DNA of 54,425 bases, filler included, from Bipalium vagum (taxonomy: Eukaryota): the NCBI GenBank assembly GCA_037834085.1. It is 3 parts of 3 records of this genome, joined end to end, with 100 filler letters (N's around TTAATTAATTAA, not from the genome) between each part and the next. Parts side by side here need not be neighbours in the genome. Positions count along the whole stretch, not along the records: positions 1 to 21,001 come from JBBMKC010243271.1; 2 more parts are not named here. One strand, 5' to 3'. Both the position numbers and the translations under genes were made by a program. This document shows, in pieces, positions 1,392 to 6,620 of the stretch; positions within the stretch are counted from its first letter, which is position 1; every line of letters starts with the position of its first letter. The notes beneath the pieces were generated by a model. That model searched no databases. It saw only the letters and a program-made list of their open reading frames with translations, and was not told where the DNA came from.

Positions 1392-1550
1392 TGTGGAGCA
1401 TCCCACAATAAACATTTTACTGATTACTGATTTTGGTAATTATGATTTTTATGAAAACATTTCATTCTTTAGTGACCAATAAACATTATGATTTTAATTT
1501 TTATTTTTTATGTAAAAGATTTACAGCTGATGGTCAGAAAATCCCTTTTA

Positions 1551-1583
<33 letters not shown>

Positions 1584-2604
1584 TATTATTATTAAAGAAT
1601 TTTAGTAAAAATAAAAGTATTAGCAACAAATTAAAATTGGTAATCATAAGTTACTAATTATAGAAAAAAGTACAAAATATTAATAATAAGGTTTATAATT
1701 ATGAAAAAATTATATTAAATCATATTAAGAGTAACTTATAAATTACTAAAAATAAAATCATATAAAAAATATATAGTATAAAAAGACTTACATGAGACCA
1801 TAAGGCAGAATGAAATAGAACAGAAAAATAACCAAAATTGAAAAATAGTCATCTCAGAAAAGTAATCACAGCGGAAAGATTCATCTTGGCAAAAATTAAA
1901 GTCCAAATAACAATAATAAGGTCAAATACCAAGTCGTGATTATCTTATCAAATATTCAGAAAATTTACATATTCAAATTCCAAGTCAAACATTCCTTAGA
2001 GCCGAAAATATTTAAGCAGGAACACTTGCAGAGAAGGACCAAAAGGACCATAATTCGTTCGACATTAAACTTAGGTAATTCGTGCAGTAACTTTTATTAT
2101 TATTATTATCATTATTAAAAGCATTCGTACTCTGTATGTACAAAAGTATCGAATTAATTTTTCTTAATATATTTATTACCATAATTTGAGCAATCCTAAT
2201 CGATTGACGTAAATTTTTAAATTTAATAAATCCTCTTATAAATAAATACTCGGTGCTTCACCGTTGATTGATTAAATTTTATTGTTTTTCTTTTTCTTCC
2301 TTTTTTGTTTAAAGTTTGCACAGTCGCTAGCTGGCAAACTTCCCGAGGGCTTTAACACACTAGACTAAGTCTGTGTTTAAAGATTCTGAATCAATCAGCC
2401 TAAAATCATATTATAAACTTGTCATTTGAACATTATTAGAAACCGATTTGTCAATAAAGATTTTATTTCAAAAATTTTATTTTTGTTCAATTTTTACACT
2501 GTGTCAGTGATTACTATAGTGCTTGAACGTTCATCCGTGATTCCTTCTGATGTTAAGCCCAAGTTAAGTCTATTAAAATCAACCACCTTTTTAGGAACTT
2601 AACA
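1392..2604 (+). mobile_element. Solo-LTR-like element A (TGTGGAG...AACTTAACA), 4-bp TSD TGTC
   Basis: TG..CA ends; TGTC at 1388-1391 and 2605-2608. Removing it rejoins the RT reading WKKGKK-DI-WISLDF. Confidence 0.8.
1552..1593. repeat. (AAT)n(ATT)n inverted microsatellite
   Basis: AAT run switches directly to an ATT run, inside element A. Confidence 0.9.
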
Positions 2605-3260
2605 TGTCTTTCTTTCCCTTCTTCCATAAGCATATTAACGATGTGTTCCACGGAGAGTTACATTTTCTGATAATATTATTATGATAAAGATTCTTCTCTA
2701 TACCGTCTCCTTCCGATACCAAATCAATATTTTCTGTAATCAAGTTAATCCTTCTATTCCCATACATCCCTTGATTACTCATTAGATATTTCTATTTCTT
2801 CGTTGATCTGCACTTCTACTTAAACCTGTGTAACAATCCGAAGTTTGATATCCGCTTCTTCCACACCTTTAAACTTATAATTTGGACAATTCCTTTGACA
2901 TTCAAAACACGTAGGAATTTTTCTTTCCCAATAATCTCGACTGTGCCCCACGATCTTAGTTACATATCCAACATTCCACTGATCATTTTGCTGGGGAATA
3001 CTTCCATATAGGTCAAGTGTTTTTCGCGAGATAAAATCTGCACCACTTTTCGTATATCCAACTAGAGGTCGTAGATTATGCACGGTATCTTGTCTTTGAT
3101 TGAGATCAAATCTGACAGCATCCCTACAGTTCCTTATTGTGTTTACATGATCTGACATTTTTTTGTCTAATCTTATCCAGAATAGTGATTTTGACTGTGA
3201 AGTATTGTATAAATTAAATATTTTATTGTGACAATCGATTCAATTATAATCGTTATTAAC
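2605..3260 (-). pseudogene. Gypsy gag/pol remnant (degenerate Zn-knuckle region and RT N-terminus)
   Basis: ORF 2591-2782 contains NNIIRKCNSPWNTSLICLWKKGKKD (the SPW motif at the start of Gypsy RT). ORF 2820-3158 contains a TCFECQ..CPN knuckle-like segment. Confidence 0.75.
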
Positions 3261-3597
3261 ATAACTGAAAGAGTCGTAAAATCACGAGCTAAGTATTACA
3301 AAGTTCTCATTGTTATATAAACATAACAATAATAATAACTGAGGAATTCATTAACAATTATCTGACTGATTATTTTGATTAGCCTAATTTTATTGTGATG
3401 TTAACGTATATTGTCAAATCTCTTGTTATTTCGATAAGGGTCAAAAGTAATAGGGACATAACCATTTCTATTGAAAAGGATTATATTATTGACATGGTTA
3501 ATAGTTTTTTCAATATTTTTTACAAAATAAAGATAAAATAACATAAAACATATCAATGATCAATTAGCCAGCAAACTGATTTTAAAATTATTTATTA

Positions 3598-3598
3598 C

Positions 3599-3633
<35 letters not shown>

Positions 3634-3672
3634 ACAATTATTATAATTATAATTATTATCATTATTATTATA
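3598..3672. repeat. (TTA)n microsatellite, degenerate
   Basis: TTA runs with interruptions. Confidence 0.85.
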
Positions 3673-4036
3673 ATATTAATATTTCAATCTTATTTTGGCA
3701 TTACGTTATCGTTATTGCTATTATTACAGATCAATTGTCAATTTTTAAAAAAACTTTTCTCCTGAGACATACATTCTCATCAGCTAATTCTTTCTATACA
3801 ACAACCTGTCAATATTTTATGTCTCTAGAGAATCCACAAAGGTATCATCACACTAGTATGGTAAATCTACGTATGCATATAAAGCTTTTCTTATTTTCAT
3901 AATTTATTTTGTTTCAAAAAATATTCTGATTGAATTTTCATTTGAAGCTGTTATTATTTATTTAAACAATTATTTTCATTTGTAATAATAATAATAATCG
4001 AATAAATATAAAAAATATTTTAATTGTTTATATTAA

Positions 4037-6620
4037 CACTTCCCGGGGTCATATTTTTTATTAAATAAGACTAATCTAGTCATGACTATCGTCACGCTGA
4101 CCACGAAAATATATACATTCACCAGTCTACCACATCTAGTTTTTGAAAAAAATGTGATTTAATTTTTTATATACTGTTAAAAAACCACAAGTCATAAAGA
4201 AAAGATTAAAAGAATATTTCAAATTCAAATTAGGAGACCAGGACAAACCATTCGCAGGGCATACTGTATGCAGAAAATCTTCTTATTTCTCTATGTTTTC
4301 TGTTGGAAAGATTCTTAATTTACCATTTGGTACACCTATGGTATGGAGATGTGGAGACTACTCCCAGGCAAGGAAGCAGAAAGGAACTGATCCAAACATT
4401 AATAAAAACTTAAAATTGTTTTGTGATCCAAATCATTTAACATTTTGTACAAACTTTAATTCAATGTTGTAAATTTGGTGATCCTTTAATCTTTTATTAT
4501 GTAAATTCTTTACAAAACTTTATGCATGTTATTTGATATAAAGTTTATGTGTATGTGTAAATAATTGATAAATTCCGAGAAAAAATAAATAAATTAATAA
4601 AATATAAATAATATTCAAAGAAATAACAAATAAATTAAAATAATTATAAATTTAGAAATAACGATAAAAATAATTACTAAAAATAAAAATACTAACTAAA
4701 TAACGAAAAAAAAAATAAAAAATTATATAAAAAATAAATATAGTAAATTTATATTTCTATAAATAAAAATATGTAACAAATATTAATATAAATTAAAAAA
4801 TTTTATAAACAACGGAAACACAAAAAGAGTCGCAAAGCAAAAGAAAAGTCTTCGATATTTGTTAATTAGAATTGAAATTTGGATATTAAATTACGAAAAG
4901 TTTGTCACGTTGTAACCAGATATTTTCAACGTTAACACAAGAAAGTTTATCAACTTATTAACTAATTCTGACAGAACGGTATCAAATTGCTGAAATACGT
5001 ACTATAAAAGAAGACCATCTCAAATAAGAAAAGGAGAAGAAAAAAAGGAAAATAGAAAACGAAGAGTCAAGAGCATTAAATTCTATTTAAAGACGATAAC
5101 CAATATCTGATTCATAATTTTATTTTGGGATATAAAAATTCTGGTTATTGCAAAACCAAAGTATTCGTTCCAGTATCTATGATATTCAATACTTAATCCG
5201 ATTCGTTATATCACGAAGACATATTTCGTTAATATTGAAAAACCGAACACTCATTCTAGTATCCAGTAATTTCAATAATAATTGTTTTATTTATTCAATC
5301 ATAAATAACAATTTGATTACAAATTGAATATTGTGATTGCTAATTAATCTTTAAAATCTTAAAAATAATTTGGATAGAATAATTGGATAGTTTCCCAATT
5401 ATTCTATCATTATCAAAGTAAAAACCTTTTTTGCTTGTTCCCATCTTTTCCTTTCTATTGCCTTCTCTACGTCTAGTAGGGCGGAGAGGCGCTTGTTTCT
5501 TTTAAGGGCTCTTGAGGCTAGGTTAGAGAAGAGCAATCTAAATTCCTTCTTAAAACTTTATTTCTCCGGGATTTATCAATATAATAACTTTATTTTTTTA
5601 AAATTTAATTTAATTTATTTTTTCAAAAAAGGTAAAAAATATATATTTATAAAAATAAACATCGTGTCTTGAGTGTTTTAATTTATTAGTCCGATTCGAT
5701 TTTTATTAGCACAATCATTTAAATACCCAGTCGATTAAAAATAATTAAAAAACTCATTTTTTTTTATTTGAACACGAGCGTAACAAACTCTAAATCCTTC
5801 TGATTTCAATAATTATAACGAGCCACGTTAAGTCTTGATTAAATATTGATTAACAACAATCTAAACCTCATTCTATCTCTATCATCCATCATTATCTCAA
5901 AACTTAACAGAGAGACAAAAAAATTATATTGAAATTTTTGCCTAACTAACTTACCATGTTTTAACAAAAGGACAGCCAAACATATTAAATAACCGGATTT
6001 GCCAACAGCAATTAGGCCAATGTCATATTATAAGGATGATGATATATAACGATATATGCGATGATGAAAACAAAGTTGATGATGATGAAGAATGGCTAAA
6101 TGATAACTTGAAATAAAATCACGCAACATCAATGAAGTATTTTCGTTCGTAAATTAGGGTTATTCAAGGAAGATATCATAAAGGTGGCTCGATGCTAAAG
6201 GGTTTTGGTGTTCTTGCATCTAAAACCAAGTTTTACAGGTACAAAGAAAGAGATATGCAGTATGTTCAGTTTTTCAAACAAAGTGAACTGTATGCATTTG
6301 TGTATTACCAATATAAATAAGGTTTGCTACCTGAACGAAGCATAAATTCTAATGTTATTATGGACTGTTGGTTATGTAAGGATGGCAGCGGTAGTAGTGT
6401 ACAAGCTGTTCTCCTACATAGGGAAAACAAATTTCCTTTCGTTTGAATTGCGTATTCAAGGGAGGCATCGGAAACATATGATATCATGAAATATCTTAAG
6501 GATATATTGCATTACGATGCCTATCTATGAAATAAGGACGGCGGAGATCTAAAGGTAATTGGAGTCTTGACAGGAGTGGAGGGTAGTTAAACCAAATACT
6601 GATGTTTCCTATGCTTATAC
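4037..6620 (+). mobile_element. Decayed Chapaev3-like (CMC) DNA transposon, split by element B
   Basis: Starts CACTT after TAA. It encodes FKLGDQDKPFAGHTVC..LPFGTPMVWR, and after 5913 continues PDLPTAIRPM, AVLLHRENKFP, ETYDIMK and GDLKVIGVLTG..TKY*CFLC. These motifs are typical of Chapaev3-type transposases; many stops. Confidence 0.7.
4350..5909 (+). mobile_element. Solo-LTR-like element B (TGTGGAG...AACTTAACA), 4-bp TSD GAGA
   Basis: GAGA at 4346-4349 and 5910-5913; same terminal 7-mer and 9-mer as element A. It interrupts the Chapaev transposase right after PMVWR. Confidence 0.8.

Follow-up and report, generated by a model that had tools for sequence, protein, structure and literature searches.

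Two diverged repeats of Bipalium vagum as probable solo long terminal repeats with putative tRNA-Trp-binding boxes

A stretch of DNA from Bipalium vagum (GenBank assembly GCA_037834085.1) carries two insertions, elements A and B, that are most likely ordinary solo long terminal repeats (LTRs). The whole stretch, called the window here, is 54,425 nucleotides long, filler included, and joins three parts of three records; positions 1 to 21,001, where both elements lie, come from JBBMKC010243271.1. Coordinates count along the window, and features lie on the plus strand unless stated otherwise. That A and B are LTRs, in either orientation, seems to us very likely. We also think it probable that they are solo LTRs of two distant families, likely of a Gypsy lineage primed by tRNA-Trp, with primer-binding boxes in U5. 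Solo LTRs are ordinary; the value of this pair lies in the ordered chain of short motifs near their right ends.

Both elements have exact boundaries. Element A (1392-2604, 1213 bp) opens with TGTGGAG and closes with AACTTAACA, between two copies of TGTC (1388-1391 and 2605-2608). Element B (4350-5909, 1560 bp) stands in the same way between two copies of GAGA (4346-4349 and 5910-5913). A preliminary description of the window had given these ends and their 4-bp target-site duplications (TSDs), and both are exact on rechecking. It had also denied terminal inverted repeats (TIRs) beyond TGT/ACA. The symmetry between the ends is indeed 3 bp only, with the refinement that each end lies within a local inverted repeat. 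In A the att-like left end TGTGGAG falls within a 5-bp hairpin (1392-1407), the same hairpin is found in copy C (188-203, introduced below), and the left end of B also folds on itself, with different letters (4350-4367). At the right end, the terminal ACTTAAC pairs with its reverse complement GTTAAGT in both elements: 2563-2569 with 2597-2603 in A, in minimum-free-energy and centroid folds, and 5827-5833 with 5902-5908 in B.

The inverted third copy reported earlier at the window start is also real. Copy C (27-203, minus strand) is an A-family element truncated where the window begins, with its left part remaining: its left end is at 203, it leaves the window inside an AAT repeat, and its single visible flank reads GTAT. 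It matches A 1-203 with 66% identity over 205 columns (E 6e-8). Between the ends, A and B cannot be aligned as DNA (143 of 300 shuffles score equally well) or as protein, in agreement with the earlier remark that they are barely alignable. A small open reading frame (ORF) common to both was considered and rejected; the best score, 42, falls below the null mean of 45. Exact copies of TCCTTCTGAT and GTTAAGTCT are confined to A and B, with two of each where 0.17 and 0.31 are expected. The strict pair of end words with a 4-bp TSD occurs twice in the window and in none of 150 Markov-simulated windows, a null that is post hoc, since the words were derived from A and B themselves. Looser end definitions are reached by chance in such simulations (means 0.33, 5.3 and 45). 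With strict or medium definitions the window holds no further copies, and looser matches are at chance level.

Into what did A and B insert? Translations place each within a decayed host element. The host of A (1040-3240, minus strand) is riddled with stops and frameshifts and is split by A inside a reverse transcriptase motif; from motifs of this kind we take it to be a Gypsy-like pol. The host of B (4190-6630) is probably a decayed DNA transposase of the Chapaev type. To the left and right of each element, the host frames join at the duplicated bases. In addition, one contig of sequencing run X1 passes from the right flank of A into letters that, by eye, resemble the left flank; A is absent from it, and a short tandem there shows an offset of four bases. 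Both elements are precise insertions, each with a duplication of 4 bp. Summed contig depth over the host pol to the right of A (2620-2700) reaches 10728, which indicates that the host pol family is itself highly repeated. A second decayed transposase, presumably of the same type as the host of B, lies at 29050-30330. One candidate match to the host transposase of B was discarded as a chance phage match.

The preliminary description spoke of an old, diversified lineage. Contigs of run X1 show A to be multi-copy and diverse. The depth data come from this one run, with contigs placed on positions 1000-3400, and they concern A rather than B. On this interval 965 contigs were placed (149, 204, 338 and 274 by identity class). 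Exact single-copy contigs have depths of 12-26. Summed depth, which is not the same as copy number, is 2402 at the left end of A (1405-1485). It falls to 12-124 in the nearly unique middle (1810-2133) and rises again in the right part, to 3852 at 2215-2295 and 2441-3720 over 2377-2619. The peak, 23582 at 2296-2376, sits on a double hairpin and is about ten times the depth of the ends of A, so this hairpin occurs in far more loci or subfamilies than do the ends, at 80% likeness. Among the loose ends listed, at least 12 contigs depart from A at 2604 with an agreement of only 0.48, which means a fixed right boundary and differing flanks; the other loose ends (221 rows) may include a flank with a PBS (primer-binding site). 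A is a real, old, diversified family, dispersed in many copies with fixed boundaries. One exact contig within A (1667-2246) has a depth of 12.4, half that of the exact flank and junction contigs (23-26); allelic difference and AT bias are candidate causes. A search of sequencing runs listed one run with the query and no RNA run. The first 18 nt of A had no match among viral contigs and matched 18 loci in metagenome contigs, none of which reached past the word or had the right end, so we regard them as chance matches.

The candidate signals within A stand in the order of an LTR. An AT-rich stretch with an AAT tract, little shared among copies past the first 100 bp, would be U3 (1408-2214), judging by depth and composition. 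A TATA-like box follows at 2237-2244, in the bin where depth rises steeply; it is one of three such words in A and in AT-rich DNA is weak alone. Two hairpins (2312-2341 and 2350-2382; fold z -2.2), the most shared part of the family, probably belong to R. A putative poly(A) signal, AATAAA at 2453-2458, is the last of seven such words on the plus strand of A and is followed by T- and GT-rich sequence. In the second hairpin the paired positions 2364 and 2370 are both changed and the pair is kept: the change is present in 32830 of 39526 depth units (83%) at 2364 and in 27898 of 33181 (84%) at 2370. At 2324, a wobble pair becomes a standard pair in 4614 of 9703 depth units. B resembles A in composition: in each, an AT-rich, A-skewed stretch is succeeded, towards the right end, by a patch that is richer in GC and skewed to T. 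In LTRs generally, U3 is poorly conserved, the 3' end is most conserved, about 7 bp are conserved at the ends, and residual conservation in long R regions is tied to stem-loops (PMC3601003). The depth profile of A, with its weak U3, conserved 3' end and stem-loops, has this pattern and so favours an LTR.

What is the motif chain at the right end? The chain noted in the preliminary description is present, and we conclude that its letters are mostly a tRNA-Trp complement plus one arm of the terminal stem. The idea of tRNA-Trp was tested by pairing with two tRNA-Trp(CCA) genes from public contigs. In A, box 1 (2523-2530) is complementary to the T arm (gene positions 57-50, with three G.U pairs), and box 2 (2543-2551) to positions 45-37 (9 of 9). 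In B, three boxes within 5768-5827 are complementary to positions 57-49 (5768-5776), 45-35 (5796-5806) and 11-6 (5822-5827). Both motifs common to A and B face tRNA-Trp in matching registers, one at the T arm and one at the anticodon stem and variable loop, and pair over 17 shared tRNA positions; the third box is found in B only. The complement of CCTTCTGAT, the 9-mer of box 2, occurs in seven rows of the planarian tRNA Table S1 of PMC7962491 (457 genes). Five of these rows are labelled Trp, and the two labelled Gly or Leu have, by eye, a Trp-like body.

The complementarity was scored against the window and against other tRNAs. The last 160 nt of B are the best-pairing region of the window, with a score that equals the maximum and is reached by two of 1338 tiles. 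When the tRNAs were shuffled, the summed score of A and B was reached by 1 of 1500, the score of B by 2 of 1500, and both scores together by none of 1500. Two tRNA-Gln controls gave 9-10, versus 19-20 for tRNA-Trp. We predict from these matches that the shared right-end motifs act as extra primer-binding boxes in U5.

Four lines of evidence lead us to read A and B as solo LTRs: the end motifs, the TSD of 4 bp, the profile of conservation, and complementarity to a tRNA primer. The preliminary description had offered solo LTRs or non-autonomous retroelements. This evidence favours its first option; as for the second, a complete element of the terminal-repeat retrotransposon in miniature (TRIM) type is disfavoured, because each end word occurs once per element in both A and B, whereas such elements have two LTRs with a primer-binding site (PBS) as well as a polypurine tract (PPT) inside. 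A retrozyme was also rejected: Rfam found no hammerhead or other ribozyme in the repeats. More broadly, no Rfam match in the window reached the gathering score, and in 1-6300 none of those with E up to 5 was credible.

Known families offer partial parallels. The general LTR end consensus is TGTTRNR...YNYAACA, and the 5' motif of CsRN1 is TGTGGYG (PMC3601003, Table 3). The right end of A and B, CTTAACA, matches YNYAACA at 7 of 7 positions; the left end matches TGTTRNR at 6 of 7 and TGTGGYG at 6 of 7. CsRn1-like elements make 4-bp TSDs without target preference and have a tRNA-Trp PBS, with AAA or ATA as the reported 3' end (PMC2582038). The CsRn1 clade (CsRn1, PwRn1, AgCR) therefore resembles A and B in TSD length, in a 5' TGTGG.G and in tRNA-Trp as the likely primer. 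It differs in LTR length, 146-381 bp in the rows examined as against 1.2-1.6 kb here, and the extracts of PMC2582038 and PMC3601003 describe no counterpart of the U5 tRNA boxes. Because the 3' ends of A and B are ACA, we do not file them in this clade, which is also marked by a CHCC Gag and by reverse transcriptase phylogeny; they are CsRn1-like in their TSD and in their presumptive primer. That Gypsy elements have expanded in planarians is well established (PMC11410931, PMC6431247, PMC8532177). Among them are the giant, high-copy Burro/GYPSM1 elements of the Gypsy type (PMC6431247), to which a link, raised in the preliminary description, is conjectural. PMC3026039, on solo LTRs, PMC10045372, PMC1865047 and bioRxiv 10.64898/2026.01.24.700457, so far as extracted, leave the reading unchanged.

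Several points weigh against solo LTRs with tRNA-Trp boxes. In the window, neither a paired LTR, PBS, PPT nor gag-pol linked to A or B is seen, and no tRNA-Trp PBS is found anywhere, as expected for TSD-flanked solo LTRs. The ACA ends depart from the AAA or ATA of CsRn1, TATA and AATAAA words are frequent in this DNA, and the stability of the terminal stems is unremarkable (z 0.24 and -1.5). The window itself may derive from the source of run X1, whose summed depths do not give copy numbers. Both host identities rest on sequence motifs, and database searches confirmed neither. The tRNA-Trp used for pairing comes from another organism's contig. Both the tRNA and the regions compared were picked after the motifs had been seen. 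The pairing score of A is in the top 6% of window tiles (102 of 1651 are as good), and alone it is reached by 199 of 1500 shuffled tRNAs; the count of shared positions alone is reached by 67 of 1500. Once about 50 tRNA types are taken into account, the chance becomes a few per cent, without counting the link to the CsRn1 clade.

Could the complementarity then be a coincidence? On this account A and B are ordinary Gypsy solo LTRs, the motifs are protein sites or intramolecular U5 structure, and tRNA-Trp matches by chance. The post hoc choice of tRNA and the unremarkable score of A would fit, as would the three G.U pairs needed by box 1 of A. We nevertheless consider this unlikely, since in A and in B alike both shared motifs match one and the same tRNA, correctly ordered and in register, B adds a third, and tRNA-Trp primes the very clade that fits in 5' att motif and in TSD length. 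The blocks may instead be read on the other strand, as a decayed tRNA-Trp copy serving as an RNA polymerase III promoter in a Helenus-like element whose LTR starts with TGTTAAG. Helenus TRIMs resemble A and B in their 4-bp TSDs, which animal Helenus makes, their solo LTRs and the tRNA-related sequence in the LTR (PMC10886601); the minus-strand start fits TGTTRNR at 7 of 7 positions, and on that strand the blocks are colinear with the tRNA, with box A- and box B-like words in B. Unlike Helenus, A and B contain no folded tRNA: ARAGORN finds no tRNA gene, nor does Rfam find the fold. Their blocks would be antisense to the expected transcript, and the minus strand is rich in polymerase III terminators, runs of at least five Ts that start 15-50 nt past the box-B-like word (10 in A, at least 20 in B). 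Moreover, the block that is best preserved in them falls outside boxes A and B, around which Helenus is conserved in the extract of PMC10886601. We judge this possibility improbable to the same degree as chance.

Less probable still is that A and B are non-autonomous cut-and-paste DNA transposons lacking TIRs and mobilised by an integrase-type transposase, Ginger-like or other. Ginger1 and Ginger2 share TGTNR termini and 4-bp TSDs with A and B, conserved ends around a variable middle would suit deletion derivatives, and every visible flank is mixed. Ginger elements, however, have TIRs of about 40-270 bp and insert at CCGG/CCGT or RTATAY (PMC2836005), whereas A and B have 3 bp of symmetry, TSDs of TGTC and GAGA (GTAT beside C) and no transposase. 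Transposition of this kind also leaves the tRNA complementarity and the compensated internal hairpin unexplained.

If A and B are indeed LTRs with tRNA-Trp boxes in U5, how would such an element work? Transcription of the full element would begin close to the TATA-like box. A PBS immediately after the 5' LTR, directly beyond AACTTAACA, would bind tRNA-Trp, and this would free the T arm of the tRNA. The freed T arm, the anticodon stem and the variable loop, and in B also the 5' strand, could then pair with the U5 boxes beside the terminal stem. Integrase would use the TGT...ACA ends of the cDNA to insert it with a stagger of 4 bp, and recombination between the LTRs would then leave a single LTR between the TSDs. 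Whether this amounts to an animal Gypsy lineage with retrovirus-style, multi-box primer activation, its two or three U5 boxes reading the T arm, anticodon stem and 5' strand of tRNA-Trp beside a terminal stem and staying exact while the rest of the LTR diverged too far to align, is in our view an evenly balanced question.

In retroviruses and in yeast Ty elements the primer is documented to pair outside the PBS as well, and extra primer pairings have been called a common requirement of retroelements (PMC5371799). U5 of avian sarcoma virus pairs with the T loop of tRNA-Trp, and HIV-1 (human immunodeficiency virus type 1) has a comparable PAS (primer activation signal), although the role of the PAS in HIV is disputed (PMC3185550, PMC3675109). 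As in A and B, these pairings involve short U5 boxes upstream of the PBS position, the T arm and a nearby U5 stem; the avian retroviruses even use the same tRNA. Unlike the retroviruses, A and B are LTRs of the retrotransposon type, their longer exact box faces the anticodon stem and variable loop, and their pairings are predicted only. B has a third box as well. The bipartite primer binding of Ty1 and Ty3 (PMC5371799) likewise resembles A and B in tRNA pairing beyond the core PBS of an LTR retrotransposon. Ty3, however, is primed by initiator tRNA-Met and has its second part about 4.8 kb off, in the 3' U3, whereas the boxes of A and B lie in what would be U5.

The window holds other features besides A and B. 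An intronless ORF of 276 amino acids (7790-8620) encodes a divergent Mob1/phocein domain (Pfam E 1.3e-12; atlas 0.94) amid transposon debris. A decayed Tc1/mariner-like element (9560-10700) retains a DDE_3 remnant (E 0.008) and, by eye, apparent TIRs. A sulfate permease (SLC26-type) gene of several exons spans 11945-18198; mariner/Tc1-like fragments were seen by eye in a long intron. A 57-nt direct repeat, 96% identical, occurs at 50318-50374 and 50780-50836, 462 bp apart.

A search of the open-access literature, by listings and abstract openings, turned up no description of such U5 boxes for a tRNA in any animal Gypsy element; its reach did not extend to Repbase or to subscription papers. The solo LTR reading with tRNA-Trp boxes predicts that paired copies carry a tRNA-Trp PBS. 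If it is true, the boxes would provide a sequence tag with which to classify long, unalignable LTRs in flatworm-type genomes, and solo LTRs would reveal their primer without a PBS. They would also supply natural variation for testing the disputed model of primer activation. Control of priming through U5 and the tRNA would then be common to these elements and the avian retroviruses, by descent or by convergence.

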